In this document: piece after piece, positions 3,306-60,851 of the stretch
Position numbering within the stretch: position 1 is the stretch's first letter
How the letters are laid out: each line of letters begins with the position of its first letter
DNA from: Patescibacteria group bacterium
Lineage (GTDB): Bacteria; Patescibacteriota; Saccharimonadia; Saccharimonadales; JANWIN01
NCBI GenBank assembly: GCA_035480855.1
Contig: DATIHJ010000019.1
Span: 80,096-144,095 of the forward strand
Direction of reading: 5' to 3'
Length of the DNA stretch: 64,000 nt
Made by a program: the position numbers and the translations under genes
The notes under the pieces: generated by a model
What the model saw: the letters and a program-made list of their open reading frames with translations, nothing else
What the model was told of the DNA's origin: nothing
Database searches by the model: none

Positions 3306-3335
3306 TTGTTAAAAAAATATCCTTTGTGACATAAT
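3306..3335 (+). promoter_or_regulatory. Promoter TTGTTA-18 nt-TGaCATAAT, 7 nt upstream of ATG 3343 (leaderless geometry)
   Basis: -35 at 3306-11, TG at 3327-28, -10 at 3330-35. Confidence 0.45.
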
Positions 3336-3342
3336 GTTGCTT

Positions 3343-3627
3343 ATGGCTAAAGCAAAACAAACAGTTAAGAAACGACGTAACTTAGTAAATGAAGCAGATA
3401 GTGAGTATTTTCTTAAGATACTATTTTATCTTGTGATCGGGTCATTTTGGCTGCGTATTACCAATAGCTCTGGCACTCAGATACCTATTCCAATTGGTTT
3501 TATAGCCGGTGTGGCGCTTGCCATGCATGAGCGTCTTAGGATTGACCGTAAGCTAGAGTATGCAGTACTACTAATGGCAATGTTTATCGGTTTTTGGCTG
3601 CCAATAGGCATAACCATTACCCATTAA
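3343..3627 (+). CDS. Small hypothetical membrane protein (94 aa, 2-3 predicted TM helices) inserted between rpsJ and rplC
   Basis: ORF track starts at 3334. ATG 3343 fits the -10 + 7 nt geometry. Hydrophobic stretches FLKILFYLVIGSFWL, IPIGFIAGVALAM and AVLLMAMFIGFWLPIGI. No homolog recognised. Confidence 0.5.
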   Translation: MAKAKQTVKKRRNLVNEADSEYFLKILFYLVIGSFWLRITNSSGTQIPIPIGFIAGVALAMHERLRIDRKLEYAVLLMAMFIGFWLPIGITITH

Positions 3628-3651
3628 TCGATTTGTAGAATACACAACGAG

Positions 3652-3681
3652 TTGACAGAGGTAGCAATGGTCTGTTAATCT
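3652..3681 (+). promoter_or_regulatory. Candidate promoter for rplC and downstream genes (TTGACA-18 nt-TGtTAATCT)
   Basis: -35 at 3652-57, TG at 3673-74, -10 at 3676-81. Leaves a leader of about 130 nt before rplC. Confidence 0.4.
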
Positions 3682-3820
3682 GTAACGGTACAACAAGACT
3701 CTGAGCACTTGGCATATTGGCAAGTCCACCACGTAACAGGGGTAGATACTGCTAGTAGCCAAGCATTTTTGTGTCTTATCCAGATTCAAAAGCAAGGGTT
3801 ATTAATCTGTACGAGGATTC

Positions 3821-4429
3821 ATGAAAGCATTGATCGCCAAAAAAGTCGGTATGACAAGCACCATCGCAGAAGACGGTGCAGCTGTTGCTGTGACTTTGCT
3901 TTTAGTTGAACCCAATGTAATAAGTCAAATCAAGACAGATGAAACTGATGGTTATACAGCCGTACAAGTAGGCGCAGGAACCGCCAAGCTAGGTAAGGCA
4001 CAGAAAGGTCATTTCAAAGCCGCCAAGATTATGCCTACCATTACCCGTGAATTCCGTGTAGACGAAATCACAGAAGACCTCAAGGTTGGAGAAACACTCA
4101 GCCCCGAGGTCTTTTCAGTTGGAGACATAGTGGCCGTAACCGGAACCAGCAAGGGTAAAGGCTGGGCAGGCACCATAAAGCGACACAACTTTCACCGTGG
4201 ACGCAAGACACATGGTGGTCGCAGCTACCGTCGCCCTGGTTCAATTGGCTCCATGTATCCACAGCACATATTTAAGGGTAAAAAGATGGCTGGACATATG
4301 GGTCATGAACGTGTGACCGTAAAAGGACTCAAGGTAGCAATTGTGGATACAGAGCTTGGTGTAATTGGTGTCACCGGTGCAGTCCCCGGCCCACGTAAAG
4401 CAACGGTCTTGATACGAGGAGCTAACTAA
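3821..4429 (+). CDS. rplC: 50S ribosomal protein L3
   Basis: GTSKGKGWAGTIKRHNFHRG... L3 signature. SD GAGGA upstream. Confidence 0.95.
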   Translation: MKALIAKKVGMTSTIAEDGAAVAVTLLLVEPNVISQIKTDETDGYTAVQVGAGTAKLGKAQKGHFKAAKIMPTITREFRVDEITEDLKVGETLSPEVFSVGDIVAVTGTSKGKGWAGTIKRHNFHRGRKTHGGRSYRRPGSIGSMYPQHIFKGKKMAGHMGHERVTVKGLKVAIVDTELGVIGVTGAVPGPRKATVLIRGAN

Positions 4430-14504: not shown

Positions 14505-14513
14505 TGGTATAAT
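14505..14513 (+). promoter_or_regulatory. Consensus extended -10 element TGgTATAAT downstream of secY
   Basis: TG at 14505-06, TATAAT at 14508-13. Weak -35. Confidence 0.4.
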
Positions 14514-14555
14514 AGGCCTAGTATTTACCACGTTCTGCTAAAGTGATAAAACACT

Positions 14556-14584
14556 TTACAAACGGTGGTGGTGTTTGTTATACT
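14556..14584 (+). promoter_or_regulatory. Candidate promoter for infA-rpmJ-rpsM... (TTACAA-17 nt-TGtTATACT)
   Basis: -35 at 14556-61, -10 at 14579-84. A short SD-less leader precedes infA. Confidence 0.45.
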
Positions 14585-14603
14585 TAATTCTTGTTAATAT
14601 TTT

Positions 14604-20252: not shown

Positions 20253-20258
20253 TATAAT
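20253..20258 (+). promoter_or_regulatory. -10 box TATAAT 8 nt upstream of the trpS ATG (leaderless geometry)
   Basis: No SD between the box and ATG 20267. Confidence 0.4.
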
Positions 20259-20266
20259 TACATTCA

Positions 20267-21298
20267 ATGAGTAAGCAGGTAATTTTGACAGGGCTTAGAG
20301 CCAATAGTGAGTTTCACTTAGGTAACTATCTTGGTGCCATTTTGCCTATGGTAGATGTGCAAAAGAAACATGCCGGGGATTACCAGCTGAATATGTTTGT
20401 CCCAGACCTTCACAGCTTCACTACACCAATCGACCATGGCAAGCTTTATCAGAACACTTTAGATAATTTAAAGGTTTTTGACGCAGCAGGCCTAGATATA
20501 GAAAATTCTGATACATTCATTTACAGGCAGAGTTACATACCAGCGCACAGTGAACTTGCATGGATACTTGACTGCTTTACTTATTTTGGTGAGGCAAGCA
20601 GAATGATTGAGTTTAAAGACAAGTCACAAAAGTTTGGTAATGATACCGTTAGTGTCGGCCAGTTCAACTATCCAGTACTAATGGCAGCAGACATTTTGTT
20701 ATATGGTGCGGAATGGGTTCCACTGGGTGACGATCAGCAACAGCATCTTGAGCTTGCCCGCGATCTGGGTATGCGTATGAACAATAAGTTTGGTGATTTG
20801 TTTGTTGTGCCGCGTGAATGGAAAAAGCAACTGGAGTTTACGGATAGGACTAGCGTACGCATCCGCTCGCTGCGAAACCCAGAAAAAAAGATGAGCAAAA
20901 GTGTGGAAGACCCCGCCGGCACAATTATGCTCAATGACAAACCAGACGAAGCCGTAAAGAAGATTATGAGTGCCACAACTGATTCTGTGGGATCAATTCA
21001 CCTGGACTGGGATAAACAACCCGGCATTAGCAATTTACTTCAAATAAGCGCTCTCTTACAAGGTCAAAACATGCAGGACACAGCTAAGGAGTGGGAAGGC
21101 AAGACAAGCTACGGAGAACTAAAGGAGCATACTGCTGAGCTTGTTAAAAAGTTTTTGTCGGAGCTGCAGCCAAAAGTAATGAGTATTAGCGAAGAAACTG
21201 TACTCAAAAAGCTGGAGCAAGACGAGGCAGCCATGACTAAAGTAGCCAATGCCACCTTACTAAAAGTTCAAAAGGCGGTGGGACTAAGGTCAGAGTGA
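20267..21298 (+). CDS. trpS: Tryptophanyl-tRNA synthetase
   Basis: Class I HIGH-type motif (FHLGNYLGA) and KMSKS. Confidence 0.93.
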   Translation: MSKQVILTGLRANSEFHLGNYLGAILPMVDVQKKHAGDYQLNMFVPDLHSFTTPIDHGKLYQNTLDNLKVFDAAGLDIENSDTFIYRQSYIPAHSELAWILDCFTYFGEASRMIEFKDKSQKFGNDTVSVGQFNYPVLMAADILLYGAEWVPLGDDQQQHLELARDLGMRMNNKFGDLFVVPREWKKQLEFTDRTSVRIRSLRNPEKKMSKSVEDPAGTIMLNDKPDEAVKKIMSATTDSVGSIHLDWDKQPGISNLLQISALLQGQNMQDTAKEWEGKTSYGELKEHTAELVKKFLSELQPKVMSISEETVLKKLEQDEAAMTKVANATLLKVQKAVGLRSE

Positions 21299-23055: not shown

Positions 23056-23064
23056 TGCTATAAT
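23056..23064 (+). promoter_or_regulatory. Extended -10 TGcTATAAT 7 nt upstream of ATG 23072 (leaderless geometry)
   Basis: TATAAT at 23059-64. No SD. Confidence 0.45.
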
Positions 23065-23071
23065 AGGCACT

Positions 23072-23725
23072 ATGTTTGAACTAGGTTTAGTACTGGGCTT
23101 TGGGCTTCTGGCAGTTCGTAGCGCCCAGGTTCGTGACGAGGAACTATCCGCCATTCCGCGCCGTATTAGCGACAAGCTAGGTAAGCTTTGGGACATAGCT
23201 CATCAGGGTATGCGCGAAAACCGTTTCCTGAGGGCTGAAAAGGCCTTACTAACCATCCTAAAGATAGACGAGCGTAATGCGGCGGCCTATAACCGTCTTG
23301 GCATACTCTATGCCAAACAAAAGGAATATAAAGACGCTATAGACTGCTTTGAGATAGCCAGCAGCATAGAATCCACACCTTCTAGCTTGCATAACCTGGG
23401 ACTAATTTATTACGAGACCGAAAACTATCAAAAGGCAGCCATAGCATTTGAACAGTCCCTTAAACTAGAAGACACCTATGCCGCCCGGCATATTGCCTAC
23501 GCCAAGGTACAAGAGAAGTTGGGAAACCAAAAGTTAATGCTTCAGGAATTAGAACGTGCTGCAGAGCTCGAGCCTAATAAAGAGACCTACAACTTGCTTA
23601 TCAAAGCCTACGACGATTTAGGTATGGCGGTGGAAGCTGACCAACTCAAAGACCGTTTAGCCAAGCTTGTAGTGCCAGCAGGACGCTCCAAACGCGTCCT
23701 CCGCCCTCGCAAGGTTGTTATTTGA
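23072..23725 (+). CDS. TPR-repeat protein with N-terminal membrane anchor
   Basis: Repeated AxYNLGxxY-type TPR units (AAAYNRLGILYAKQKEYKDAIDCFE...). Confidence 0.75.
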   Translation: MFELGLVLGFGLLAVRSAQVRDEELSAIPRRISDKLGKLWDIAHQGMRENRFLRAEKALLTILKIDERNAAAYNRLGILYAKQKEYKDAIDCFEIASSIESTPSSLHNLGLIYYETENYQKAAIAFEQSLKLEDTYAARHIAYAKVQEKLGNQKLMLQELERAAELEPNKETYNLLIKAYDDLGMAVEADQLKDRLAKLVVPAGRSKRVLRPRKVVI

Positions 23726-23938: not shown

Positions 23939-23952
23939 ATTTCTGGATATAA

Positions 23953-25834: not shown

Positions 25835-25863
25835 TTGGTAGAAAGCTCTTAAACTGTTAAAAT
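25835..25863 (+). promoter_or_regulatory. Candidate promoter for tRNA-Thr(GGU) (TTGGTA-17 nt-TGtTAAAAT)
   Basis: -35 at 25835-40, -10 at 25858-63, 13 nt before the tRNA 5' end. Confidence 0.45.
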
Positions 25864-25876
25864 CACATCTGTTAAT

Positions 25877-25951
25877 GCCGACATAGCTCAGTGGTAGAGC
25901 ACCTCCATGGTAAGGAGGGGGTCCCGAGTTCAAGTCTCGGTGTCGGCTCCA
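25877..25951 (+). tRNA. tRNA-Thr (anticodon GGU), CCA encoded
   Basis: Acceptor GCCGACA/TGTCGGC, anticodon stem CCTCC/GGAGG with loop ATGGTAA, T arm CCGAG-TTCAAGT-CTCGG. Confidence 0.92.
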
Positions 25952-25972: not shown

Positions 25973-25981
25973 TGTTAGAAT
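25973..25981 (+). promoter_or_regulatory. Extended -10 TGtTAGAAT 9 nt upstream of the rpmG ATG
   Basis: TAGAAT at 25976-81. No SD before ATG 25991. Confidence 0.4.
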
Positions 25982-25990
25982 GGTCTGAAT

Positions 25991-26191
25991 ATGACTAAAA
26001 AAGGTGACAAGCGCAAAATTATTGGTATGGTGAGCGAAGACAGCGGTCATCGCCATTACTACACGACCAAAAATACTATGAATACCCCCGACAAGCTCCG
26101 CTTAAAGAAATATGACCCGGTAGTACGCAAACACGTTTGGTACAGCGAGACCAAGAAAAGCCTTGGCCGTAACGAAGTTAAACCTCGTTAG
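25991..26191 (+). CDS. rpmG: 50S ribosomal protein L33, cysteine-free (C-) type
   Basis: [34 protein letters not shown] aligns to L33. All four Zn-ribbon Cys positions are substituted. Confidence 0.88.
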
Positions 26192-27473: not shown

Positions 27474-27571
27474 ATAACCTACAGCAGTAATAATAATCTA
27501 TCTGCACCGTCCTGTCACCAGGGTACGCCTCTTTTCATCTAGGGAGAAATCTGCTATACCATAGGTTAGTT

Positions 27572-28231
27572 ATGAACAAACTTGTGCTGAGTAAACCAAC
27601 GCTAATTATGCTCTACGGCTTCCCTGGGGCAGGTAAAACACATTTTTCTCGTCAATTATCCGATGCAGTCAGCATTGCACATGTTAGTGGTGATCGCATA
27701 CGTTTTGAATTATTTGAAAAACCACATTACGACAAACAAGAAAACGATGTGGTCAACCATCTTATGGAATACATGACAGAGGAATTCTTGCAGGCAGGTG
27801 TAAGCGTTATTTATGATGACAATGCCATGCGCCTAAGCCAACGTCGGGCACTACGCGATATGGCCCGCAAAGCACACGCCCAGCCCGTTCTTATTTGGAT
27901 ACAAATTGACCCAGACAGCGCCCAGGTCCGGCTTAGTGGCCGAGATAAGCGCAAAGCAGACGACAAATACGCTGCAGATTACGATAAACACGGTTTTGAA
28001 ACATATAGTGGCCACATGCAAAACCCACGTAACGAAGATTATATTGTCATCAGCGGCAAACATACCTTTAATACCCAAAAAAGCGCTGTGGTCAAAAAGC
28101 TTTATGACCTGGGTTTGCTCAGCGCAGATAATGCGACCACAAAGGTAGTCAAGCCAGGGCTTGTAAACCTCGTGCCAAACATGGCAGCTGGACGGGTAGA
28201 CATGACCCGCCGCAACATCGTAATTCGTTAA
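27572..28231 (+). CDS. P-loop kinase-like ATP-binding protein (AAA_33 / zeta-toxin-like fold)
   Basis: Walker A in LIMLYGFPGAGKTHFS. No further specificity recognisable. Confidence 0.6.
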   Translation: MNKLVLSKPTLIMLYGFPGAGKTHFSRQLSDAVSIAHVSGDRIRFELFEKPHYDKQENDVVNHLMEYMTEEFLQAGVSVIYDDNAMRLSQRRALRDMARKAHAQPVLIWIQIDPDSAQVRLSGRDKRKADDKYAADYDKHGFETYSGHMQNPRNEDYIVISGKHTFNTQKSAVVKKLYDLGLLSADNATTKVVKPGLVNLVPNMAAGRVDMTRRNIVIR

Positions 28232-28945: not shown

Positions 28946-28954
28946 TGGCATAAT
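28946..28954 (+). promoter_or_regulatory. Extended -10 TGgCATAAT 6 nt upstream of ATG 28961 (leaderless geometry)
   Basis: CATAAT at 28949-54. No SD. Confidence 0.45.
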
Positions 28955-28960
28955 ACAGGT

Positions 28961-30064
28961 ATGCCCCAAGACACAGCGCCGGTACCACAGAATGATGCCC
29001 AAATTGAGCGTGAGCGTTTAATTAGTCTAATCAATAGTATGGCAGACGGAGTTATTGCCATAAATGAGGCTAAGGTAGTAGTTATCTACAATGGAGCTGC
29101 GCTTAATATTTTGGATGTAAACAGCACTATCACCGGAATGCCCATCGACAAAGCTATTAAACTAGTAGACAAAAATAACCAGCCAGTAAACGTAGTCGAG
29201 CTAATCAACCAAACTACTCGTGCCTACTCCACTCGGGATCTGCTTATACAATACACAGGCGGTGGCACCATTAACCTTTACCTTAGCATTGCACCTGTAC
29301 ATCTAGGCTTCGGCAAAAGCGGCGCTCATGGCCATGTCCTGCTACTACGTGACATTACAAGAGAAAAATCACTTGAGGAAGAGCGTGATGAGTTTATTAG
29401 TGTTGCTAGCCATGAACTTAGGACGCCCATTGCCATTGCCGAAGGCAACATCAGCAACGCCCAAATGATTACTGACAAAGGTGGTGACATAGAGCAGGTC
29501 AAGAGTGCCCTCAAACAGGCATACGACCAAATAACCTTTTTGTCCGGCCTAATTAATGATCTGGCCACGCTTTCTCGCGCCGAGAGAGGTAAGTTAACTG
29601 CAGACGTTGAAGACATAAATGCGCATCAGCTATTAGATGATTTAGCGGCTAACTATAAGCCACAGGCAGAGTCCAAACATTTGCAGCTACTTACAGAAAT
29701 AGACCCAATGCTTGAGGTATTAAAGTCTAACGGGCTTTACGTACGTGAAATGCTGCAAAATTTTATTACCAATGCCATAAAATATACAGAGACTGGCAGT
29801 ATCACCATAGGTGCGCGTACACAGGACAAAGGAATAATGTTTTGGGTGCGTGATACAGGTATAGGTATCAGCAAAAGCGACCAAGACAAAGTATTCGACA
29901 AATTCTTTCGCTCAGAGGATTTTCGCACCCGACAAAGCAAAGGCACAGGCCTTGGTTTGTACGTAACAATGAAACTAGCTAGACTGCTACATGCCGAGAT
30001 TGACTTGCATAGTGAACTCAATAAAGGATCGACCTTTCAAATCTATGTGCCAAACTTATCATAA
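28961..30064 (+). CDS. Cytoplasmic sensor histidine kinase (PAS-like domain + HisKA + HATPase_c)
   Basis: H-box SHELRTPI, N box NAIKYT, G boxes DTGIGI and GTGLGL. No TM segment. Confidence 0.88.
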   Translation: MPQDTAPVPQNDAQIERERLISLINSMADGVIAINEAKVVVIYNGAALNILDVNSTITGMPIDKAIKLVDKNNQPVNVVELINQTTRAYSTRDLLIQYTGGGTINLYLSIAPVHLGFGKSGAHGHVLLLRDITREKSLEEERDEFISVASHELRTPIAIAEGNISNAQMITDKGGDIEQVKSALKQAYDQITFLSGLINDLATLSRAERGKLTADVEDINAHQLLDDLAANYKPQAESKHLQLLTEIDPMLEVLKSNGLYVREMLQNFITNAIKYTETGSITIGARTQDKGIMFWVRDTGIGISKSDQDKVFDKFFRSEDFRTRQSKGTGLGLYVTMKLARLLHAEIDLHSELNKGSTFQIYVPNLS

Positions 30065-33261: not shown

Positions 33262-33262
33262 T
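33257..33262 (+). promoter_or_regulatory. -10 box TATAAT spanning the rplA stop, 7 nt upstream of the tmk ATG (leaderless geometry)
   Basis: No SD before ATG 33270. Confidence 0.35.
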
Positions 33263-33269
33263 ACTTACA

Positions 33270-35595: not shown

Positions 35596-35603
35596 GTATA
35601 GAT

Positions 35604-35609
35604 ATTGTA
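35604..35609 (-). promoter_or_regulatory. -10 box TACAAT 8 nt upstream of the mprF-like ATG (leaderless geometry)
   Basis: The minus strand reads TACAAT-atctatac-ATG. No SD. Confidence 0.35.
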
Positions 35610-41743: not shown

Positions 41744-41749
41744 TATAAT
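41744..41749 (+). promoter_or_regulatory. -10 box TATAAT 9 nt upstream of the dnaX ATG
   Basis: No SD before ATG 41759. Confidence 0.35.
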
Positions 41750-41758
41750 AGATAGCAC

Positions 41759-43207
41759 ATGGGGCAAGCGTTATACCGTAAATACCGGTCTAAGACTTTG
41801 GGTGAAGTGGTGGGGCAAGAGCACATCACATCCACTCTTCAAAGCGCCTTAAAAAGTGGCAAAATCAGCCACGCTTATTTGTTCACCGGGCCACGAGGCA
41901 CAGGCAAGACAAGTGTAGCCCGAATACTGGCTCACGAGGTCAATGGTTTACCCTACACTGATGAGTCCATTCACCTAGACATTATAGAAATAGACGCGGC
42001 CAGTAACCGCCGCATAGACGAAATTCGTGATCTGCGCGATAAAGTCCACATATCTCCCACTAGCGCCAAATATAAGGTCTACATCATAGACGAAGTCCAT
42101 ATGTTGACCAAAGAGGCCTTTAACGCCTTGCTTAAGACCCTAGAAGAACCACCAGCTCACGTTATATTCATCCTTGCCACTACAGAGGCCCATAAGCTGC
42201 CAGATACCATCATCAGCCGCACCCAACGCTACAGCTTTAAGCCTATTAAGACCAAAAACATCACCTCCCACTTAAAACAAATTGCCCAAAAAGAAAAGAT
42301 TAATATAGATGTCGAAGCCCTGGAACTAATTGCACTGCACAGTGACGGCGGACTGCGTGACAGCATTAGCCTACTCGACCAAGCAGGCTCCAGGGGCAGC
42401 GAAGTAACTCTTGCTAGCGTCCAGCAGCTGCTTGGCATTGCCCCCAGCGAAGCTATAAACGAACTTCTGGCAGCTCTGGCAAGTGGCTCACCCAAGCAAC
42501 TGCTAGATATTTTAGCTAGCTTACATACCCAAGGGCTCCAAGCCGGTCAGCTGGCCAAACAGCTAGGTCAAACTTTGCGTCAGCAGCTAGTAGACAACCA
42601 ATTAACCCTACCCGTGAATGAAACAACTGAGCTACTTGGCAGGTTATTAGATGTACCGGCAAGTGGCCAAGCCGACCGCTTGCTAGAAGTCATTCTTCTA
42701 GAGGTGTTGCTTAGTTTAAGCGCTGATCAACCCCGTCCCGTTGAGCAATCCAAAGCCAATAAGCCTTCGCCTGAGCCAGAGACGCCAGCGCCAAAAACTA
42801 AACCCGAACCTGCCAAAGTAGAACAAGTAGCTATAAATACTAAATCCAATTCCAAGACATCCCAACCAGCTAACTCTAGCTTCGCACTAGACATGTGGCC
42901 AGAAATATTACAAAACGTCAAAGCCGAGCATAACACTCTTTATAGCGTGCTACGTATGGCAGAGCCATCACTTGAGAACAAGACCCTTTACCTGGGCTTC
43001 CAGTTTGCTTTTCACCAAAAGCGCATCAATGAATCTAAAAACAAGAAAATACTAGCAGATATCATTGCAGCTCACTCCAGCCAGCCCATTACAGTTGAGG
43101 CAATTGTTTTGGAAAAGCCCGTATCCCAAAAAGCAAAACCAGAGCCAGTAGTAGCTAATATAGAGACCATTAGCAGTATTTTTGGAGGTGGCGAGGTGCT
43201 AGACTAG
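41759..43207 (+). CDS. dnaX: DNA polymerase III subunit gamma/tau
   Basis: YRKYRSKTLGEVVGQEH..., Walker A GPRGTGKTS, DEVHML, SRTQ sensor. Confidence 0.93.
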   Translation: MGQALYRKYRSKTLGEVVGQEHITSTLQSALKSGKISHAYLFTGPRGTGKTSVARILAHEVNGLPYTDESIHLDIIEIDAASNRRIDEIRDLRDKVHISPTSAKYKVYIIDEVHMLTKEAFNALLKTLEEPPAHVIFILATTEAHKLPDTIISRTQRYSFKPIKTKNITSHLKQIAQKEKINIDVEALELIALHSDGGLRDSISLLDQAGSRGSEVTLASVQQLLGIAPSEAINELLAALASGSPKQLLDILASLHTQGLQAGQLAKQLGQTLRQQLVDNQLTLPVNETTELLGRLLDVPASGQADRLLEVILLEVLLSLSADQPRPVEQSKANKPSPEPETPAPKTKPEPAKVEQVAINTKSNSKTSQPANSSFALDMWPEILQNVKAEHNTLYSVLRMAEPSLENKTLYLGFQFAFHQKRINESKNKKILADIIAAHSSQPITVEAIVLEKPVSQKAKPEPVVANIETISSIFGGGEVLD

Positions 43208-44590: not shown

Positions 44591-44624
44591 GTAAAGCGAT
44601 AATGCTATACTAGACCGCGTATCT

Positions 44625-45815
44625 ATGAGTCTTAGCAAACGCCTCCATGTCTTATTTATCCGCGTGTCATCGCCGCTTGTTTGGGGCCTAGCTGCACTAG
44701 CGGGAATCGGTTTTATACTTTTTTATCGACTGGGTAGCTTAGTACCAGGCTGGAGCCAGGCAGAACTTAGCTTTTTAAATCAGAGCCGCACATTCAAGGG
44801 CATTTTGAACAACCCCCTAAATGCACCTTACAAACTTGCGCAACTAGCGCTAATTCTACTCCACCATGAAGGGCCAATAGCAATGCGCAGCCTTAGTGCC
44901 CTTATTGGACTCACAAGTATTGCACTGTTTTATTATGTTATCCGTAAATGGCACACTACACGTGTCGCCTTGATGAGCGTAGTGCTACTGGCCACGTCCA
45001 GCTGGTTTTTGGGGTATGCTCGGGTAGCTCTGCCGGCTATACTCTATACTTTTCTAATTGCCGCTCTTGCATATGGCACCTGGCTACGCTCAACTAAAAA
45101 GTCTGCTTTGGCACTGTTTGTAGGTGCTGCACTAGCAGTGTTTTTAATCTATATTCCTGGCCTAGTGTGGTTTGTCTTAGTAGCCGGTGTCTGGCAGCGC
45201 AAAGCCATATTTGCTCACTACAAAGACAGGTCTGTACTGGGATTTTTGGCTATTATTATGGGTTGTGTGCTACTACTTCCACTTATCTATGGGTTGGTCA
45301 TGCATCCTCAACTTACACGTTCGTTTGCTGGACTTCCGTTACTGCATTGGCCAAGCGTACTCACTGTTTGCAAAAACATCTTGTATGTACCTTACCATCT
45401 GGCTGTACATAGTGGCCTTAACCCCGTTTTTGGCCTGAGCAACTTACCACTGCTAGATATCTTTACGCTAGCGATGGCCGTGCTAGGCATATATGCCTAC
45501 TTTTTTCGTCGTCAGCTTGATCGTACCAAGCTACTTCTGGGTTCAATCATTCTCGGAGTAGCCCTAATAAGTTTGGGTGGAGGGGTAGAAATAGTTATAT
45601 TGCTACCTTTTATATATCTATTTGCAGCTGGTGGTATTACCCTAATGCTACAACAGTGGTTTACAGTTTTCCCACTCAACCCACTAGCCAGGATAGTGGC
45701 CACAACCCTTATGACCGTGATTGTACTAATGGCCAGCTTTTATCACATCAACCGCTATTTCGTAGCTTGGCCAAATGCCCCGATCACCAAGCAAACCTTC
45801 CATATTCACTCCTAG
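44625..45815 (+). CDS. Polytopic membrane protein (at least 9 TM helices), possibly a GT-C (ArnT/PMT-like) glycosyltransferase
   Basis: Hydrophobicity pattern and loose resemblance to family-39 glycosyltransferases. The function is uncertain. Confidence 0.4.
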   Translation: MSLSKRLHVLFIRVSSPLVWGLAALAGIGFILFYRLGSLVPGWSQAELSFLNQSRTFKGILNNPLNAPYKLAQLALILLHHEGPIAMRSLSALIGLTSIALFYYVIRKWHTTRVALMSVVLLATSSWFLGYARVALPAILYTFLIAALAYGTWLRSTKKSALALFVGAALAVFLIYIPGLVWFVLVAGVWQRKAIFAHYKDRSVLGFLAIIMGCVLLLPLIYGLVMHPQLTRSFAGLPLLHWPSVLTVCKNILYVPYHLAVHSGLNPVFGLSNLPLLDIFTLAMAVLGIYAYFFRRQLDRTKLLLGSIILGVALISLGGGVEIVILLPFIYLFAAGGITLMLQQWFTVFPLNPLARIVATTLMTVIVLMASFYHINRYFVAWPNAPITKQTFHIHS

Positions 45816-45881: not shown

Positions 45882-45890
45882 TGCTACAAT
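45882..45890 (+). promoter_or_regulatory. Extended -10 TGcTACAAT upstream of ybaB
   Basis: TACAAT at 45885-90. An SD-containing leader of about 18 nt follows. Confidence 0.35.
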
Positions 45891-45914
45891 AAGGGAGTAA
45901 TTAGGAGGACAGAA

Positions 45915-46208
45915 ATGAGCCGTTTTGACCAAGCTAAAATGCTTATGAAGATTAAAAAGGTCCAAAAAGAGCTGCAAAAACAGATTATAACTATTGAGAC
46001 AGGAGACGGGGCAGTTAAGGTAGAAATTACTGCTGAGCAAAAGATTAAAAAAATCCATATCGACCCTGAGTATGTTGACTTAGAAGATATTGGCCAGTTA
46101 GAGCGCTGGGTAGAAGATGCTGTAAAAGACGCCATCAACGAAAGCCAAAAAGTAGCCGCAGAAAAAATGCAGCCATTTATGGGAATGCTGGGCGATTTGG
46201 GACTATAG
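45915..46208 (+). CDS. ybaB: Nucleoid-associated protein YbaB/EbfC family
   Basis: Size and pattern (MLMKIKKVQKELQK...GDGAVKVEITAEQKIKKIHIDPE). SD TAGGAGG. Confidence 0.85.
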   Translation: MSRFDQAKMLMKIKKVQKELQKQIITIETGDGAVKVEITAEQKIKKIHIDPEYVDLEDIGQLERWVEDAVKDAINESQKVAAEKMQPFMGMLGDLGL

Positions 46209-46851: not shown

Positions 46852-46857
46852 TATACT
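46852..46857 (+). promoter_or_regulatory. -10 box TATACT 7 nt upstream of ATG 46865 (leaderless geometry)
   Basis: No SD. Confidence 0.35.
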
Positions 46858-46864
46858 TAGACAG

Positions 46865-47878
46865 ATGAAGTACCCTGAAGCGCAAAAGATCAAAGACATA
46901 TTGGACGGTGCCAAAACGGTGGTTATTATCCAGGCAGATAACCCCGACGGCGATAGCTTGGCTAGTTCACTGGCACTAGAGCAAATTCTGGGCGATCTGG
47001 GCAAAGAGCCACATATGTACTGCAGTGTGGATATGCCTGACTACCTCAAACACTTGCCTGGCTGGGACAGAGTCAGCAAAGATATACCGTCCAAGCTAGA
47101 TGCCAGCATTATCGTAGACACCAGCGCCATCTTGCTACTAGAAAAGCTAGAAGCCAGTGAATACAGAGGCTGGGTGTCAACAAAACCAGTAATGGTACTA
47201 GACCATCATGCAGAGGTAGTTTGTGATATACCGTATGCCAAAGTTGTTATAAATGATGCGGATTCCGTAGCTACAGGGGAGGTTATCTATCATCTGGCGA
47301 AGCAGTTAGATTGGCCACTTAATCTGATGGCAAAAACACACATAGCCAGCAGTATTTTGGCAGACTCATTAGGACTTAACAGTGAAGGAACTACCCCAAC
47401 TACTTACAGGATCATGGCCGATCTGATTGAGGCAGGTGTAGATCGCCCTGCACTAGAGGAAGCCCGGCGCGCTCTTTCTAAAATGCCAGAGCAGATCTTC
47501 CGTTATAAGGCTGAGCTTATCAAACGGACAGAACTTCACGCTGAGGACCAGCTAGCCCTCGTCACGATACCAAATGATGAAATTATGCGCTACAGTCCGC
47601 TATATAATCCTGCACCACTAATTCAAAACGATATGCTACAAACTGATGGAGTCCGGGTTGCAATAGTGCTTAAACAGTACAAAGATGGCAAGACTACAGG
47701 GGCTATACGTTGTGGCTACAATACAAAGATTGCAGCAGATCTAGCTAAACATTTTGGTGGAGGCGGACACGTATACGCCAGTGGCTTTAAAGTAGAAAAA
47801 GGCAAAAGCTTTGACCAGATTAAATCTGAATGCATTAAAATAGCCTCTGAATTACTTAGTAAATCTAATTCCAAATAA
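46865..47878 (+). CDS. nrnA: DHH-family phosphoesterase (NrnA-like oligoribonuclease/pAp phosphatase)
   Basis: DNPDGDSLAS (DHH motifs I/II), DHH, and GGGGH in the DHHA1 domain. Confidence 0.8.
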   Translation: MKYPEAQKIKDILDGAKTVVIIQADNPDGDSLASSLALEQILGDLGKEPHMYCSVDMPDYLKHLPGWDRVSKDIPSKLDASIIVDTSAILLLEKLEASEYRGWVSTKPVMVLDHHAEVVCDIPYAKVVINDADSVATGEVIYHLAKQLDWPLNLMAKTHIASSILADSLGLNSEGTTPTTYRIMADLIEAGVDRPALEEARRALSKMPEQIFRYKAELIKRTELHAEDQLALVTIPNDEIMRYSPLYNPAPLIQNDMLQTDGVRVAIVLKQYKDGKTTGAIRCGYNTKIAADLAKHFGGGGHVYASGFKVEKGKSFDQIKSECIKIASELLSKSNSK

Positions 47879-49303: not shown

Positions 49304-50396
49304 CTGTTTCTGGCTCAATCAAGTTATTACGATTCAAATAATCTAATACTAGTATTCGCAGACATCCGGCAATTGGTATAGCTACTAGTCCCCCTAGTAG
49401 ACCACTAAAGCTCACGCCTATGATAACGGAACTAAAGACAAGCAATGGTGACATTTCAGTAGCATTAGCCTGGATACGTGGTTGTATAAAGTAGGTTTCG
49501 AACTGCTGGTAGAGGATGTAGTAGCAAAATACAATAATTGCCGCAGGTACAGAGTGAAACAGCGCAATAGTACTTACTATCACGGCACCAATAGTATGAC
49601 CAACAAGTGGTATTAGTCCACAGACAAACACAATTACCATAAGTGCCACTGGATAACTAACATGCAGAATGAGCAGTGGAATAATTATAAGCACTCCTGC
49701 TAATACTGCCAAAAATAACTGGCCATTAACGTAACCCTTTATGACCTTGTACATATCCCCAACTATCTTTTTGGCATGAGTCTCTTTGCTCTCAGGAAGT
49801 AAGCGCTCAGCAATACGTAGCCATTGCGGACCCTCAATTAGCATCATAAATGTTAGAACTAGCACTGTAAGTACCGAAAATACGCTACTACTAATGCGCG
49901 TAACAGTAGTAAATGCGCTGCCGCTAATATTATTTAGCCGGGCGGAGAGCTGCTTTGCAAATTTATCTACCTGATTTTCTAGATGATGATTGCGTACAAA
50001 GCTGCCCACTGAAGTGTTTTGATTGTGCAAATCCTCTACAATATGGGGCGCTTGGTGCACAAAATTACTTGTCTGGCGTACCAGAGGTGGAGCGATGCTG
50101 GCAATAAAGCCAGCTAGCAGCAACACGATAGATATAAAGGCTGTGGCTGTGGCAAGCGTCCGGTTACCGCGACTACTACCAGGTAGACGTTCTGCAATCC
50201 AGTGTACTGGGGAGTTAAGTGCAAGCGCCAGGAAAAACGCCACAAAAATAAGTGTCAGCGCATGGGAGGCCCTATGCAGGGCGGCAAGCATAATAACAGA
50301 GAGAAATATAAAAAGTAGTACCCGTATTACCGTGAAGCTCGCAATGGTTATTTCTACTTGTGAAGCTTTTTTGTCTTTTCTAAGGTAGCCAAACAT
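49284..50396 (-). CDS. AI-2E family transporter (PerM/UPF0118)
   Basis: 370 aa, about 8 TM helices, typical family layout. Confidence 0.75.
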   Translation of the reverse strand: MFGYLRKDKKASQVEITIASFTVIRVLLFIFLSVIMLAALHRASHALTLIFVAFFLALALNSPVHWIAERLPGSSRGNRTLATATAFISIVLLLAGFIASIAPPLVRQTSNFVHQAPHIVEDLHNQNTSVGSFVRNHHLENQVDKFAKQLSARLNNISGSAFTTVTRISSSVFSVLTVLVLTFMMLIEGPQWLRIAERLLPESKETHAKKIVGDMYKVIKGYVNGQLFLAVLAGVLIIIPLLILHVSYPVALMVIVFVCGLIPLVGHTIGAVIVSTIALFHSVPAAIIVFCYYILYQQFETYFIQPRIQANATEMSPLLVFSSVIIGVSFSGLLGGLVAIPIAGCLRILVLDYLNRNNLIEPETAKAGTK

Positions 50397-50402
50397 AGCC
50401 CC

Positions 50403-50411
50403 ATTATCTCA
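50403..50411 (-). promoter_or_regulatory. Extended -10 TGaGATAAT 6 nt upstream of ATG 50396 (leaderless geometry)
   Basis: The minus strand reads caTGaGATAAT-ggggct-ATG. Confidence 0.4.
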
Positions 50412-51397: not shown

Positions 51398-51403
51398 TAT
51401 ACT
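51398..51403 (+). promoter_or_regulatory. -10 box TATACT 7 nt upstream of ATG 51411 (leaderless geometry)
   Basis: No SD. Confidence 0.35.
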
Positions 51404-51410
51404 GTCTAGT

Positions 51411-52160
51411 ATGCAGCGGCCACACGTATATACTCTTTCAGCACTGGTTATAACACTGGTTATTGGCGGAATTGTACTTGCATTTAAAAACCCTAGTCCT
51501 CTTCATTTGCCCAGCTCAACTACTAGTAAAAATCAAACTAGCTCATCACAGAAAAATAATGTACCACCGACCGGCTTTAACAAACAGCTTTACTCTATAA
51601 GTGATCCAGCCAGCATATGGGTGGTCGTGAATAAGACGAGGCCACTAAATCCAAACACCTATGCACCATCTGCTCTTACGCCAATAGGCAACGGACAGTT
51701 GATGCGGCTGCAATCAGCCCAGGCCCTTGCGACCTTATTTGCGGCTGCCAAGACGGCTGGCTTTAGCTTGTATGCAGAGAGTGGATACCGATCATATGGC
51801 ACACAGGCGGGCGTGTATGCTAGCGAAGTTAAAAATTTCGGTCAGGCCACTGCAGATAGCGAGAGCGCCCGGCCGGGCTATAGTGAGCATCAAACAGGTT
51901 GGGCCGTAGACATTGCTAGCCCTGGTTGCGTAGAAGACTGCTTTGGCAAAACGACGGCAGCGGCTTGGGTAAACTCCAACGCCTATACGTATGGGTTTAT
52001 CCAGCGTTATCCAACCGACAAAACAGCTATAACTGGGTATCGTAACGAACCGTGGCATTACCGCTATATAGGCGTATTGCTTGCCACAGAAATGCGCAAT
52101 AAAAGTATAAAAACTTTAGAAGAGTTCTTTGGCCTGCCTCCCGCCCCAGATTATAAGTAG
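51411..52160 (+). CDS. M15-family D-alanyl-D-alanine carboxypeptidase (VanY-like) with N-terminal anchor
   Basis: SGYRSY, SEHQTGWAVDI and EPWHYRY motifs. Confidence 0.85.
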   Translation: MQRPHVYTLSALVITLVIGGIVLAFKNPSPLHLPSSTTSKNQTSSSQKNNVPPTGFNKQLYSISDPASIWVVVNKTRPLNPNTYAPSALTPIGNGQLMRLQSAQALATLFAAAKTAGFSLYAESGYRSYGTQAGVYASEVKNFGQATADSESARPGYSEHQTGWAVDIASPGCVEDCFGKTTAAAWVNSNAYTYGFIQRYPTDKTAITGYRNEPWHYRYIGVLLATEMRNKSIKTLEEFFGLPPAPDYK

Positions 52161-56145: not shown

Positions 56146-56154
56146 TGCTAAACT
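56146..56154 (+). promoter_or_regulatory. Extended -10 TGcTAAACT 7 nt upstream of ATG 56162 (leaderless geometry)
   Basis: TAAACT at 56149-54. Confidence 0.4.
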
Positions 56155-56161
56155 GAAAAAT

Positions 56162-57046
56162 ATGGGCATAGAGGTACCTACTCCTAGCCACAGAGCGTAT
56201 GCGTCTGACATGCGATTTGATAGCGTTGCGCAATATGGTGGCACGGCCCTATATTTAATAAGCCGTGAGAAGGTTTACGGACATACCCGTGAGGGTGTAA
56301 CCATGCATGACCGACTGCATAAAGAGGGGCTTGCTAACCTTCGTGGAGACGAGACTGTTGTTGATCTAGGGTGTGGTTATGGTAGGACTCTGCGCAAACT
56401 ACGTGATCGTGGGCACAAGGGACATCTTGTGGGATTTGATGCAAATGATACATGGTCGGTATTACCTCCAAAAGATCTGAAAGGTCTTGATCTTATCTTA
56501 AAAGACGCTCGAAATACAGAACTACCTGATGAATCCGCAGACGTAGTCATATTGGAAAAGTCTATTTACCATTTTCCTAATATTCTGCCAGAGGTGTACA
56601 GAATAATGAAACCAGGCGCACGGGCTGAGGTAACAACCTCAGGAGAATACAATAAAACCAAACAACGCATACTCCAAGAATTAATTATCAGGGCTATAAA
56701 CAATGACAATCAAGAGGAAGAGGAAATAACTTCTCCTGTTGATCTAGCTGCGCCGTTTAAAAGCGCTAAAATGTATGATCTAATGCCGGTAATTTTTGAT
56801 ACGGTAGTAAAACACGAACCCATTCAGACTATAATGATTATCAACGGTCTTGAAGCACTTGAAGATTATGTAGGGTCGATAGATTCAATGTCCACTACTT
56901 GTAACCCACCTATACCAGGTGGTATATGGCACCCATATACCTTACGTCACGCTGTCCCTCTCATTAAAATGGAGTGGCACTTAAACGGCCGTTACTCAGA
57001 TTTTATAGATCAGCACTGGATGACTGGCTATAAAAAGGCTGCCTAA
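56162..57046 (+). CDS. Class I SAM-dependent methyltransferase
   Basis: Motif I VVDLGCGYGRT. ATG 56162 is preferred over the ORF track TTG 56117. Confidence 0.75.
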   Translation: MGIEVPTPSHRAYASDMRFDSVAQYGGTALYLISREKVYGHTREGVTMHDRLHKEGLANLRGDETVVDLGCGYGRTLRKLRDRGHKGHLVGFDANDTWSVLPPKDLKGLDLILKDARNTELPDESADVVILEKSIYHFPNILPEVYRIMKPGARAEVTTSGEYNKTKQRILQELIIRAINNDNQEEEEITSPVDLAAPFKSAKMYDLMPVIFDTVVKHEPIQTIMIINGLEALEDYVGSIDSMSTTCNPPIPGGIWHPYTLRHAVPLIKMEWHLNGRYSDFIDQHWMTGYKKAA

Positions 57047-57394: not shown

Positions 57395-57784
57395 ATGAAG
57401 GCAGTGGCAGCATTTAGTGGATTTTCTGTAAAAGATTTAGCAGAGGCTAAAGACTTTTATAAAGGTAAACTTGGCTTAAAACTAAACGATGAGAAAATGG
57501 GACTAGACTTTAGCTTACCTGGTGGGGGCAAAATGTTTATATATCAAAAGGATAGTCATGAGCCAGCCACATTTACTATCCTAAACTTTGTGGTTGAGGA
57601 TATTGACGAAGCAGTCAAAGACTTAAAGTCAAAAGGCATAACGTTTGAGCAATATGATTTTGGCGGCGGCGCTAAAACCGATGCAAACGATATTATGCGT
57701 GGCCTAGCCGCAAAGCAGGGTCCAGACATAGCCTGGTTTAAAGACCCAGACAATAACATACTCGCTGTCTTGCAAGCTAAATAA
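57395..57784 (+). CDS. VOC (glyoxalase/bleomycin-resistance/dioxygenase) family protein
   Basis: ATG 57395 follows SD AAGGAAGGG. The ORF track start at 57218 has no SD. Confidence 0.65.
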   Translation: MKAVAAFSGFSVKDLAEAKDFYKGKLGLKLNDEKMGLDFSLPGGGKMFIYQKDSHEPATFTILNFVVEDIDEAVKDLKSKGITFEQYDFGGGAKTDANDIMRGLAAKQGPDIAWFKDPDNNILAVLQAK

Positions 57785-57785
57785 C

Positions 57786-58736
57786 ATGGCCAAACCCCTA
57801 ATCGTAATATCCGGCTCTCTGGCTATTGATCGTATAATGAATTTTGATGGGCACTATAGGGAGTTGATTGAACCTAGCAAAATTGAAGTCCTATCTGTAA
57901 GTGTACTTGTGAATTCGCTTGAGGAAGCAGAAGGTGGAACTGGAGCTAATATTGCTCACAACCTAGCGAGTATGGGTGAAAAGCCCATACTGCTTGCATC
58001 TGCAGGCAAAAGCGCCACTAGTTACGTTGAGCGTCTTGCTACCTCCGGTATAGACACTAGTAATGTACACATTAGCAAACTACCCACTGCTTCTTTCAAC
58101 GTTTTAACAGATAGTGCAAGTAATCAAGTAGGCGGATTCTATCCTGGCGCCATGGCAGACGCCAGTACACTCAGTTTTGAGCCATACAGTGGGCAAGATG
58201 TCATTGCCTGCATATCTGCCCATGATCCCGTCGCTATGCGCCGCCAGAGTGAGGAATGTGTAAAACACAAAATCCGCCTGGTCTATGACCCCGGGCAGCA
58301 AGTGAGTAATATTTCTGGTGAAGATTTGCGAGTAGGAGTAGAGGCCGCAGAAGTAGTTATCGTTAACGAGTACGAGCTGGATATGCTTACGAAAAAAACC
58401 GGTTGGACCGCGTCGCAGCTAGAATCAAAAATTCCAGTACTAATTAGTACACATGGCGAACAAGGGTCACGTATAGCAGGAAAAAGTATTCCCAGTTCCA
58501 TACAGATCAGTAGCGCCAAGCCGGTCAAGATTGCAGATCCTACAGGGGCAGGAGACGCCTACCGGGCTGGCTTTTTATATGGTTATTTGCGACAATGGGA
58601 GCCTGGAAAGTGCGGACAGTTGGGCTCGGTTGTGGCATCATTTGCACTTGAGCAGCATGGACCACAAGCCAAACTGTCTCAACCAGATATAGAAGCACGT
58701 TATCAGCAAACATTTAATGAGAAGGTAGTACTGTAG
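57786..58736 (+). CDS. PfkB-family carbohydrate/nucleoside kinase (adenosine-kinase-like)
   Basis: [16 protein letters not shown] signature. Confidence 0.8.
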
Positions 58737-60022
58737 TGGATTATAAAGTCAAAGACATCAAGCTGGCCAAATGGGGCCGCCAAGAAATAACATTAGCCGA
58801 AAGTGAAATGCCAGGGCTAATGTCACTGCGCGAGGAGTACGGAAAAGTAAAGCCACTCAAAGGTGCACGCATCGCCGGCTCCATACATATGACTATTCAA
58901 ACAGCTGTGCTAGTAGAAACACTTCAGGCGCTTGGCGCTGATGTCCGCTGGTCTTCATGCAACATCTTTTCTACACAAGACCACGCAGCTGCTGCTATTG
59001 CGGAGGCTGGAACACCGGTGTTTGCCTGGAAAGGTGAAACAGAAAAAGAATACTGGTGGTGCGTGGAGCAAACCCTGAAATTTGGCGACGACCTTGGCCC
59101 AAACATGCTGCTGGATGACGGTGGCGACCTAACAGATCTGGTACACGATAAACACCCTAAGCTGCTAGAAAAGATAAAAGGCGTTTCAGAAGAAACTACT
59201 ACGGGTGTTAAACAATTAGACAAATTCTTTAAGGACGGTTCACTTAAAATCCCAGCCATAAACGTCAACGATTCAGTTACCAAATCTAAGTTTGATAACC
59301 TCTATGGTTGTCGTGAGTCGCTGATGGACGGTATTAAACGAGCTACAGACGTCATGATTGCCGGCAAAGTAGCTGTAGTAGCCGGTTACGGCGATGTAGG
59401 TAAGGGCAGTGCACAGTCATTACGTGCATTTGGCGCTAGAGTGCTAATTACAGAAATTGATCCTATCTGTGCCTTGCAGGCGCTAATGGAGGGCTACGAG
59501 GTAGTTACTATGGATCAGGCAGCTCCGCAGGCAGATATATTTGTAACTGCTACCGGCTGCAAAGATATAATTACGCTAGAACACATGCAGAAGATGAAAG
59601 ATACTGCTATTGTTTGCAACATTGGCCACTTTGATCACGAAATCCAGGTAAAGCAGCTTAACGAGCTTAAGGGAGCTAAAAAAGAAACCATCAAACCGCT
59701 CGTAGATATGTACACAATGCCTTCCGGCCGTCGTTTAATACTATTGTCTGAAGGCCGTCTGGTGAACCTTGGCAACGCCACCGGTCACCCATCGTTCGTC
59801 ATGTCCTGCTCCTTCTCTAACCAAGTACTTGCCCAAATTGAACTCTATACCAAGCCTTACGACATTGGTGTCCACCGTCTACCCAAAGCACTGGACGAAA
59901 AGGTTGCAGCCATTCATGTTGCTGCGCTTGACGGACACGTCAGTAAGCTCAGCCAAGATCAGGCTAAATATCTTGGCTTAAAAGTAGACGGGCCGTTCAA
60001 ATCTGAGTTTTATCGCTACTAA
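58736..60022 (+). CDS. ahcY: S-adenosyl-L-homocysteine hydrolase
   Basis: [16 protein letters not shown], the [11 protein letters not shown] site and the [10 protein letters not shown] motif. The GTG overlaps the previous stop by 1 nt. Confidence 0.95.
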
Positions 60023-60837
60023 TTTAAGTTTTTTAAATAATTACTAAACTGTTTCATGAGTGTCGATAGACTTGTAGAGCTTGAGCCAAACACGTACCCA
60101 TCAATTGATTTAGCAGGCAGGATTTTAGATGATGTGCTAGTGACAAATGCAGCTTCGTATTGATCCAAATCATCAAGATGAATTGGTTTGTGCGCCACCT
60201 TAAATCCGTTTTTCTGAGCATAGTCTAAGACGGCGGCACGCATAATACCTGGTAATATTTGCTCTTCTGGTGGACTTGTAATAGTTTGTCCCTTTAGGCA
60301 CAAAAAGTTGGTACGGGTCCCCTCTGTTATATAGCCAGCTGGGTTTATCAGCAGTGCATCGTAAGCCCTTTGTTGTTTAGCCTGCCGATAAGCCAAGTAG
60401 CTAGGCAGCATATTGAGTGTTTTGGCGTGTGGATAATCACGTACATGCTCACAAGTAATAAAGTGCGCACCCTGCATATATAGCTTTCTGTCTGGGAATA
60501 ACGGCACCAGGCACAGTATATACAGCTTGGCGTCAGCTGGTGTGAGTCCTCCCACTAGTATTACCTTTATATTGCAAGTTTCTACTTTGTTCTTGGTAAT
60601 TAGCCCAATAATGCTTTCTTGAATAAACACTGGGGAAAATGAATGCTCTAGAGATATTATCTTTGCAGATGCTAGTAGTCTGTTGCAATGTTGGCTTATA
60701 AAATATGGTTTGCCACGCACTACACGAAGCGCTTCGTAAACACCAAAGCCATATTGATACTCTATGTTTGCTATGGAAATTACAGCTTGCTCTATGGGCA
60801 GCAATTTACCATTTGCCGAAAAATATCTATATTTCAT
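60019..60837 (-). CDS. Class IV (fold type IV) PLP aminotransferase: branched-chain, D-amino-acid, or ADC-lyase type
   Basis: [31 protein letters not shown] block typical of class IV enzymes. Confidence 0.78.
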
Positions 60838-60845
60838 TTGCCCCT

Positions 60846-60851
60846 ATTATA
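60846..60851 (-). promoter_or_regulatory. -10 box TATAAT 8 nt upstream of ATG 60837 (leaderless geometry)
   Basis: The minus strand reads gatTATAAT-aggggcaa-ATG. Confidence 0.35.

Follow-up and report, generated by a model that had tools for sequence, protein, structure and literature searches.

The 64-kb window analysed here (64,000 nt, positions 80,096 to 144,095 of the forward strand of contig DATIHJ010000019.1, assembly GCA_035480855.1, from a Patescibacteria group bacterium of the Saccharimonadales; all coordinates below count from its first letter) has a GC content of ~45% and carries fusA-tuf-rpsJ, the S10, spc and alpha ribosomal operons, trpS, rpmG, secE-nusG-rplKA, rplJL behind an Rfam L10 leader (39743-39867), dnaX, ybaB-recR and cysS, together with five transfer RNA (tRNA) genes. 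A near-identical relative is the metagenome-assembled genome (MAG) GCA_964561555.1, with exactly matching tuf and nusG proteins and identical gene spacing. We identified thirteen genes in this window whose ATG lies 6-9 nt behind a hexamer resembling the -10 element of sigma-70 promoters, a geometry that would place the 5' end of the mRNA at or next to the start codon. The hexamer/ATG pairs, listed first below, agree in coordinates, sequence and spacing with the original prediction made on this DNA, as does the number of hexamers (6 of 13) that carry the extended -10 dinucleotide, TGn.

3327..3345, + strand: TGaCATAAT (hexamer 3330-3335), 7 nt, ATG 3343; weak hexamer rescued by TGn, the least certain site
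20253..20269, + strand: TATAAT, 8 nt, ATG 20267 of trpS; protein profile aligned from residue 3, first start codon of the open reading frame (ORF), no Shine-Dalgarno (SD) sequence
23056..23074, + strand: TGcTATAAT, 7 nt, ATG 23072 of a TPR-repeat protein gene
25973..25993, + strand: TGtTAGAAT with TTGTAA at 17 nt, 9 nt, ATG 25991 of rpmG (L33)
28946..28963, + strand: TGgCATAAT, 6 nt, ATG 28961 of a histidine kinase gene; weak hexamer with TGn, identical start in the MAG
33257..33272, + strand: TATAAT, 7 nt, ATG 33270 of tmk; hexamer overlapping the rplA stop codon, gap of 8 nt
35593..35609, - strand: TACAAT (35609-35604), 8 nt, ATG 35595 of an MprF-like lysyl-phosphatidylglycerol synthase gene; divergent from 35724
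41744..41761, + strand: TATAAT, 9 nt, ATG 41759 of dnaX
46852..46867, + strand: TATACT, 7 nt, ATG 46865 of an NrnA-like DHH phosphoesterase gene
50394..50411, - strand: TGaGATAAT (hexamer 50408-50403) with TTGCAA at 16 nt, 6 nt, ATG 50396 of an AI-2E family transporter gene
51398..51413, + strand: TATACT, 7 nt, ATG 51411 of an LdcB/VanY-type carboxypeptidase gene; divergent from 51331
56146..56164, + strand: TGcTAAACT, 7 nt, ATG 56162 of a methyltransferase gene; divergent from the gene ending at 56052/56076
60835..60851, - strand: TATAAT (60851-60846), 8 nt, ATG 60837 of a class IV aminotransferase gene; divergent from 61029

Two further genes, also recognized in the original prediction, show the same kind of element at slightly greater distance, and two sites serve as contrasts:

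27552..27574, + strand: TGcTATACC, 11 nt, ATG 27572 of a P-loop kinase gene; expected leader of ~4 nt
44603..44627, + strand: TGcTATACT, 13 nt, ATG 44625 of a hypothetical protein gene (396 aa); expected leader of ~6 nt
45882..45917, + strand (contrast): TGcTACAAT, 24-nt leader with AGGAGG, ATG 45915 of ybaB; same promoter type in leadered mode
25855..25877, + strand (contrast): TGtTAAAAT 13 nt before the 5' end of mature tRNA-Thr; same -10 class at an RNA gene

The gene names trpS, rpmG, tmk and dnaX, which the original prediction had assigned, were confirmed with NCBIfam profiles. The ORF at 3343 encodes a hypothetical protein and is not rpsJ, which occupies 2788-3186; it belongs to the ORF 3334-3627 (+, 94-97 aa), located between rpsJ and rplC in the S10 operon with flanking gaps of ~150-190 nt, and no Pfam or NCBIfam match was found for it.

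We evaluated this arrangement against a gene map of the window built from self-trained coding potential (81 ORF calls), in which the start was taken as the first ATG, a rule blind to the -10 box. When a sigma-70 -10 weight matrix was scored at offsets of 0-34 nt upstream of each start, 10 of the 20 strong matches within 40 nt upstream of the 81 genes were found at a spacing of 7-9 nt (binomial p = 2e-5). After the upstream sequences had been shuffled 1000 times with dinucleotides preserved, 2.1 ± 1.5 genes qualified, compared with these 10 (p ≤ 0.001). Relaxing the threshold so that the three weak hexamers are included gave 13 genes against 5.7 ± 2.3 after shuffling (p ≤ 0.004). The composition-matched null that the original prediction had proposed as a check on itself is thus exceeded in the sequences upstream of the window's genes. 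The modal spacing was 7 nt, and the peak at 7-8 nt is out of frame. Furthermore, none of the 10 genes with strong sites has an SD, compared with 42 of the 71 other genes (Fisher p = 3e-4), in agreement with the earlier claim that these genes lack one. A -10 box at fixed spacing before an SD-less ATG is therefore a confirmed property of this DNA. A looser count, of TAnnnT at a given distance from the ATG before any long ORF, was swamped by the period-3 background within genes and was uninformative, and was therefore replaced by the tests anchored on ORF starts.

The same signature was found in related loci, for all of which a single pipeline was used (greedy ORFs of ≥120 aa, first ATG, hexamer score ≥6.4 bits). 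In Saccharibacteria dnaX loci from GTDB (255 kb), hexamers were enriched 3.4-fold at 6-9 nt (p = 8e-10), and in metagenome contigs encoding relatives of CysS (783 kb) the enrichment at these distances was 3.8-fold (p = 3e-21). By contrast, loci of other phyla retrieved with the same dnaX query (1.03 Mb) showed none at 6-9 nt (1.0-fold, p = 0.62), and their hexamers pile up at ≥13 nt upstream instead. The results for subgroups were concordant; nothing significant was detected in the Bacilli loci, and Chloroflexi loci gave 1.5-fold (p = 0.42). In the relatives, the modal spacing was 6-7 nt. Across ~1 Mb of related loci, an SD precedes 1 of 130 motif-bearing genes versus 163 of 776 others (p = 3e-11). 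The enrichment in the Saccharibacteria set depends on the start codon (3.9-fold for ATG, 1.4-fold for GTG and 0.9-fold for TTG), and in the same set the motif precedes 6% of the genes with a gap of <10 nt to the upstream gene versus 15-21% of the genes otherwise.

The element is also retained in individual orthologues. The NrnA-like gene is preceded by TACAAT or TATAAT at 6-8 nt in five related loci, dnaX by TATAAT at 8-9 nt in three, and the AI-2E transporter gene by TGaGATAAT or TGaGATACT at 6 nt in two, the respective proteins being 50-57% identical; tmk of related locus L001 (47% protein identity) has TGcTACAAT at 7 nt. The flanks of all four genes are unalignable.

These comparisons bear on one alternative, namely, that the pattern is a chance or compositional artefact whereby AT-rich intergenic DNA and in-frame stops near the first ATG mimic TAnnnT. 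The in-frame TAA or TAG codons that bound an ORF indeed inflate the counts slightly at offsets 6 and 9, even in the control phyla, and the sites of the original prediction had been chosen by eye. However, the signal exceeds the shuffles, the peak in the window lies out of frame, offsets 7 and 8 taken by themselves remain enriched in the more distant metagenome relatives (p = 6e-10), 1 Mb of control loci passed through the same pipeline shows no enrichment, and orthologues keep the element. We regard this explanation as refuted, with hardly any probability left to it.

The composition of the elements points to promoters. Positions A2, A4 and T6 are invariant in all 13 hexamers, and T1 is replaced three times, each time in the presence of TGn, as expected of extended -10 sigma-70 promoters, in which a TG one base before the hexamer makes up for weak -35 or -12 elements. 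The TGn dinucleotide at 6 of 13 hexamers is significant (p = 1e-4), more so when the two additional genes are included (8 of 15, p = 2e-6), and elements combining TGn with a strong hexamer are concentrated in non-genic DNA (12 of 28 in 12% of the window, p = 5e-5). The same elements are found 13-22 nt before the 5' ends of mature tRNAs and, at 20-31 nt, before genes led by an SD (for example ybaB, 24569 and 25122). The proposal that the hexamers act as sigma-70 -10 elements, rather than being artefacts of composition, is upheld. Together with the fixed spacing from SD-less starts, the conservation in orthologues, the enrichment in the lineage and the lack of it in other phyla, this matches the established in silico mark of leaderless genes (PMC6028130, PMC3160421).

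The position of the motif also allows another reading, in which the TAnAAT-like hexamer is a non-SD translation signal, i.e. an A/U-rich site for the ribosome or for ribosomal protein S1, on leadered mRNAs, comparable to those of Bacteroidetes (group B of GeneMarkS-2). The motif is A/T-rich, sits where a ribosome-binding site (RBS) would and is mutually exclusive with SD, and S1 binding is another possible source of AT-rich bias at -20 to -10 (PMC5397173). Nevertheless, the invariant A2 and T6, the exchange of T1 only together with TGn and the TGn extension itself are traits of sigma-70 recognition. A translation signal would also fit poorly with the presence of the element before tRNA genes and before leadered genes that have their own SD, with the ATG-specific enrichment and with the depletion of the motif before tightly coupled internal genes, given that an RBS of the group B type precedes all genes, internal ones included (PMC6028130). 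Taken together, we consider this reading very unlikely.

An arrangement of a different kind was noted at infA (ATG 14604; 14505-14606, +), which is preceded by a TGgTATAAT at 14508 and a TGtTATACT at 14579, both of them strong extended -10 elements. A distance of 19 nt separates the nearer one from the ATG and an SD is lacking, so that an SD-less leader of ~12 nt is expected; this layout would be intermediate between the leaderless and leadered classes.

How widely the leaderless geometry is used was estimated by a hand count from the per-gene tables, in which divergent or gap-preceded genes were taken, by our judgement, as candidates for the first gene of a transcription unit. Of ~44 such candidates, 10 have the strong geometry, 3 a weak hexamer plus TGn and 2 an element at 11-13 nt, i.e. 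about one third altogether. At least ten first cistrons are instead leadered and have an SD (tuf, rplC, secE, rplK, rplA, pheA, 24569, 25122, rplJ and ybaB). The rule put forward in the original prediction, that first cistrons are leaderless and the remaining genes use SD or coupling, is accordingly too general, with only ~13-15 of the ~44 candidates following it, although its core, the leaderless signature, holds. Its second half is well founded for internal genes: an SD match of at least 5 nt precedes 15 of the 34 close-coupled genes, and 12 ATGA or TAATG overlaps are present. Two genes had been misplaced among the internal ones, rplJ, which heads its own leadered unit behind the Rfam L10 leader, and ybaB, which heads another, with its own TGcTACAAT 24 nt upstream; tuf, likewise called internal, probably heads a leadered unit as well, with a gap of 166 nt before it.

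Of the thirteen genes described as operon-first, 35595, 51411, 56162 and 60837 certainly are, being divergent from their neighbours, as is the near-leaderless 27572 among the additional genes; where the gap to a same-strand gene is 8-39 nt and terminators are not detectable, first position is deduced from the promoter itself. A scan for intrinsic terminators gave no excess over shuffles in the window (22 vs 20 and 23 vs 19).

Two genes next to tRNAs have an unusual arrangement of their own. The ATG of rdgB/Ham1 (23953; 23939-23955, +) follows the encoded CCA end of tRNA-Tyr at a distance of exactly 14 nt, and that of the glutamate dehydrogenase gene gdhA (27384; 27382-27398, -) follows the CCA end of tRNA-Trp at precisely the same distance. 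Both genes lack an SD as well as a strong -10 box (at gdhA there is just TAGCTT at 7 nt), and their starts are sound because the profiles align from residue 2-4. Both may be co-transcribed with the tRNA, whose processing would free a very short 5' end.

Based on the promoter geometry, we consider it quite probable that, in about a third of the units, sigma-70-type promoters start transcription at the AUG or a few nucleotides before it and that the resulting mRNAs are translated by the leaderless route. The promoters would be dominated by the -10 element, often with TGn and with a weak -35, the hexamer ending 6-9 nt before the ATG. At a spacing of 6-7 nt, the canonical sigma-70 geometry would place +1 on the A of the AUG; a spacing of 8-9 nt would likely yield a leader of 1-3 nt, which is probable for rpmG (25991), and one of 11-13 nt a leader of ~4-6 nt. 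Such leaders are too short for an SD, so that ribosomes are predicted to bind the 5'-terminal AUG directly, a mode with which the ATG-only enrichment is consistent. The remaining genes would depend on AAGGAG-type SDs on leadered mRNAs or on coupling through stop/start overlap. For 60837, a second element, TGcTATATT at ~60901 (-), could give a leadered transcript in addition. Although the motif, its spacing, the absence of SD, the ATG specificity, the enrichment over nulls and the conservation in orthologues and across the lineage are observed directly, we infer the 5' ends of the transcripts and the mechanism of translation.

Several points weigh against leaderless initiation at these genes or blur its extent. 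Three hexamers are poor at position 1 (CATAAT twice, GATAAT once), and for the first of the CATAAT sites the MAG calls ATG 3334 instead of 3343, a codon that overlaps the hexamer. The -35 hexamers are only marginally above background (p ≈ 0.05), and a generic scan for -35/-10 promoters in the window did not exceed shuffles (39 vs 33 ± 6 and 30 vs 34 ± 6); we conclude that the promoters are -10-dominated and that operon ends cannot be read from terminators. Genes 20267, 23072, 28961, 33270, 46865 and 50396 start 8-39 nt behind a gene on the same strand without a recognisable terminator, and rpmG (25991) starts 39 nt downstream of tRNA-Thr, so that at these 7 close-gap sites of the 13, read-through transcripts in which the ATG is internal and SD-less probably exist as well. 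For the related loci, genes were called crudely, from the first ATG of ORFs with a minimum length of 90-120 aa, and the in-frame stops add their small artefact there. Finally, the only Saccharibacteria set of transcription start sites (TSSs) that we found, 188 TM7x TSSs inferred from RNA-seq and reused in a study with no comment on leaderless genes, is described as having a variable -10-to-TSS distance (PMC12641261).

Some of these points would also fit a variant in which the promoters are real but leaders of 1-6 nt support near-leaderless translation, or in which the genes are translated by reinitiation or 70S scanning on read-through polycistronic mRNAs. At 25991 and 41759 (9 nt), 27572 (11 nt) and 44625 (13 nt), the spacing is greater than the 6-7 nt that canonically separate the -10 box from +1; purines are present 1-6 nt before the ATG, and both the short same-strand gaps and the terminator-like sites, which occur at shuffle level, leave room for read-through. 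On the other hand, the modal spacing (7 nt here, 6-7 nt among the relatives) would put +1 on the A of the ATG, and the strong sites 35595, 51411, 56162 and 60837 are divergent from their neighbours and cannot be served by read-through. We consider this variant improbable, if less so than the other alternatives. Moreover, leaders of up to 5 nt are reportedly counted as leaderless as a rule (Cortes et al. 2013), so that short leaders would refine the leaderless interpretation rather than replace it.

The start codons themselves are well placed. The claimed ATG is the first ATG, GTG or TTG after the in-frame upstream stop at 11 of the 13 sites and at both additional genes, and at no site do the first 70 codons contain an alternative start preceded by an SD match of 5 nt; the only weaker candidate, with a match of 4 nt, is codon 47 in the gene at 56162. 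For trpS, rpmG, tmk, dnaX and the NrnA-like gene, the alignment to the NCBIfam profile begins within residues 1-3, and for the 60837 aminotransferase at residue 2; the independent gene calls of GCA_964561555.1 share the starts 27572, 28961, 33270 and 35595. The suggestion that start annotation should exploit the leaderless rule is therefore of minor consequence here: most of the starts are the plain first ATG, which an ordinary gene caller already finds, and only 3343 and 56162 (the latter with in-frame TTG/GTG at 56117/56120, upstream of its promoter) depend on the rule.

In addition to the promoters, we identified a conserved ~140-nt leader upstream of dnaX (39309-39500, +), located behind a TTGTCA-17-TGtTAAAAT promoter and before an SD-led 72-aa ORF (39499-39717) that has no Pfam match and is called as a gene in the related MAG too. 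The leader sequence shares 75% nucleotide identity with positions 7182-7331 of L001, where DnaX is only 52% identical and the small ORF after the leader only ~33% identical, and its position is syntenic, 2.4-2.7 kb upstream of dnaX in both the window and L001. Within it, TTGAAGCCTG is the exact reverse complement of CAGGCTTCAA, and the latter doubles as the 5' arm in the hairpin of a terminator (39453-39475), after which comes TTTAATTTT; pairing of TTGAAGCCTG with CAGGCTTCAA and the terminator hairpin would thus be alternative antiterminator and terminator structures. No Rfam match was found at E ≤ 1, and we propose this leader as a candidate new attenuator or riboswitch.

Other features of the window agree with its assignment. 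The closest DnaX relatives, among GTDB contigs with one genome per species, belong to MAGs of Candidatus Saccharibacteria/Saccharimonadales, at ≤52% identity. In GCA_964561555.1, the genes of the window, which is contiguous, are split over at least two contigs, CAZLPX010000001.1 (108.9 kb) and CAZLPX010000013.1 (13.7 kb), and the trpS, rplL and 57786 proteins of the window have no exact record and differ from that MAG by at least one residue; the window thus represents a closely related but different assembly or strain. The ribosomal traits are typical of the Candidate Phyla Radiation (CPR): the rpsJ ORF is extended by 32 aa at its N-terminus, uL1 reaches 340 aa (32239-33261) with an L1 domain that begins only at about residue 115, and the L30 gene is absent between rpsE and rplO (11791-12878), in agreement with a CPR survey in which uS10 and uL1 are enlarged and uL30 is missing (PMC9297842). 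Additionally, a 779-aa protein (36430-38769, +) combines the Pfam domains Thymidylate_kin and Thy1 (ThyX), with a gene of the DCD (dCTP deaminase) family adjoining; the stand-alone tmk (33270-33896, +) is located 3 kb upstream of this fusion, so that the segment encodes two thymidylate kinase domains.

In our literature searches, no paper linking leaderless mRNAs to Saccharibacteria or CPR was found, and a TM7x transcriptome preprint contains no TSS or promoter analysis. No new mechanism is described here, as both the signature and what is inferred from it have been published for other phyla since 2011-2018; it is a known signature in what is apparently an undocumented lineage. On balance, we lean slightly towards pervasive leaderless transcription and translation, in about a third of the units, as a conserved trait of the entire class Saccharimonadia, possibly extending more widely in CPR/Patescibacteria. 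If so, a further major bacterial lineage would rely on leaderless mRNAs, beside Actinobacteria and Deinococcus-Thermus, and the trait might be tied to the reduced ribosomes of CPR and bear on the view of leaderless initiation as ancestral. In CPR, bS1 has only 3-4 domains, and loss of the anti-SD is limited to some Parcubacteria (PMC9297842). The bacteria with leaderless initiation would thereby gain a deep-branching lineage whose genomes are small and whose ribosomes are reduced. For annotation, given that Saccharibacteria and other CPR are mostly known from MAGs, a large minority of putatively leaderless genes can guide which start codons are trusted and the start model of the gene caller. 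For genetic work, the architecture suggests that a minimal TGnTATAAT-N7-ATG cassette should drive expression without an RBS in the few cultivable strains, such as TM7x and Southlakia.

The closest known counterparts are bacterial. In the "TA-led" genes of Zheng et al. 2011, TANNNT is located ~10 bp before the start, the motif being TAtaaT in genomes of medium GC content (PMC3160421). Group C of GeneMarkS-2 comprises genomes, mostly of Actinobacteria and Deinococcus-Thermus, in which the first gene of the operon has a Pribnow box at 6-8 nt and an estimated 25-50% of operons are leaderless (PMC6028130), a range that includes the third of units estimated here. The genes described here resemble both in having a -10 hexamer 6-8 nt from the start codon of a presumed first gene, no SD there, SDs at the remaining genes and TAtaaT as the motif. 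Hexamer spacing, enrichment over the null, lack of SD and start placement, by which group C can be recognized, were all found in the window, with 27572 and 44625 borderline at 11-13 nt. The differences are the host lineage, Saccharibacteria (CPR/Patescibacteria), which neither survey names, with a small genome of ~45% GC, the frequent TGn, and the SD of the other genes, which is strong and canonical (AAGGAG).

In mapped leaderless transcriptomes, a -10 box is followed after ~7 nt by a start codon at +1, the -35 is weak or absent, and leaderless transcripts make up a large minority. Those of Mycobacterium tuberculosis, M. smegmatis and Deinococcus deserti are reportedly backed by differential RNA sequencing (dRNA-seq), ribosome profiling and N-terminal proteomics. 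In mycobacteria, both AUG and GUG occur at leaderless starts, whereas the enrichment in Saccharibacteria is essentially limited to ATG. The D. deserti case is cited in PMC6028130. The architecture is alike in Mycobacterium, D. deserti and the lineage studied here, with the difference that theirs has been mapped experimentally and the one here is predicted from sequence. The leaderless mRNAs of archaea (group D) share with the present case a promoter at a fixed distance from the start, the lack of SD on the first cistron and SDs on internal cistrons. However, the archaeal element is a TATA box with a TFB recognition element (BRE) at about -26, whereas in these Saccharibacteria it is a sigma-70 -10 box at -7 to -12 (PMC6028130).

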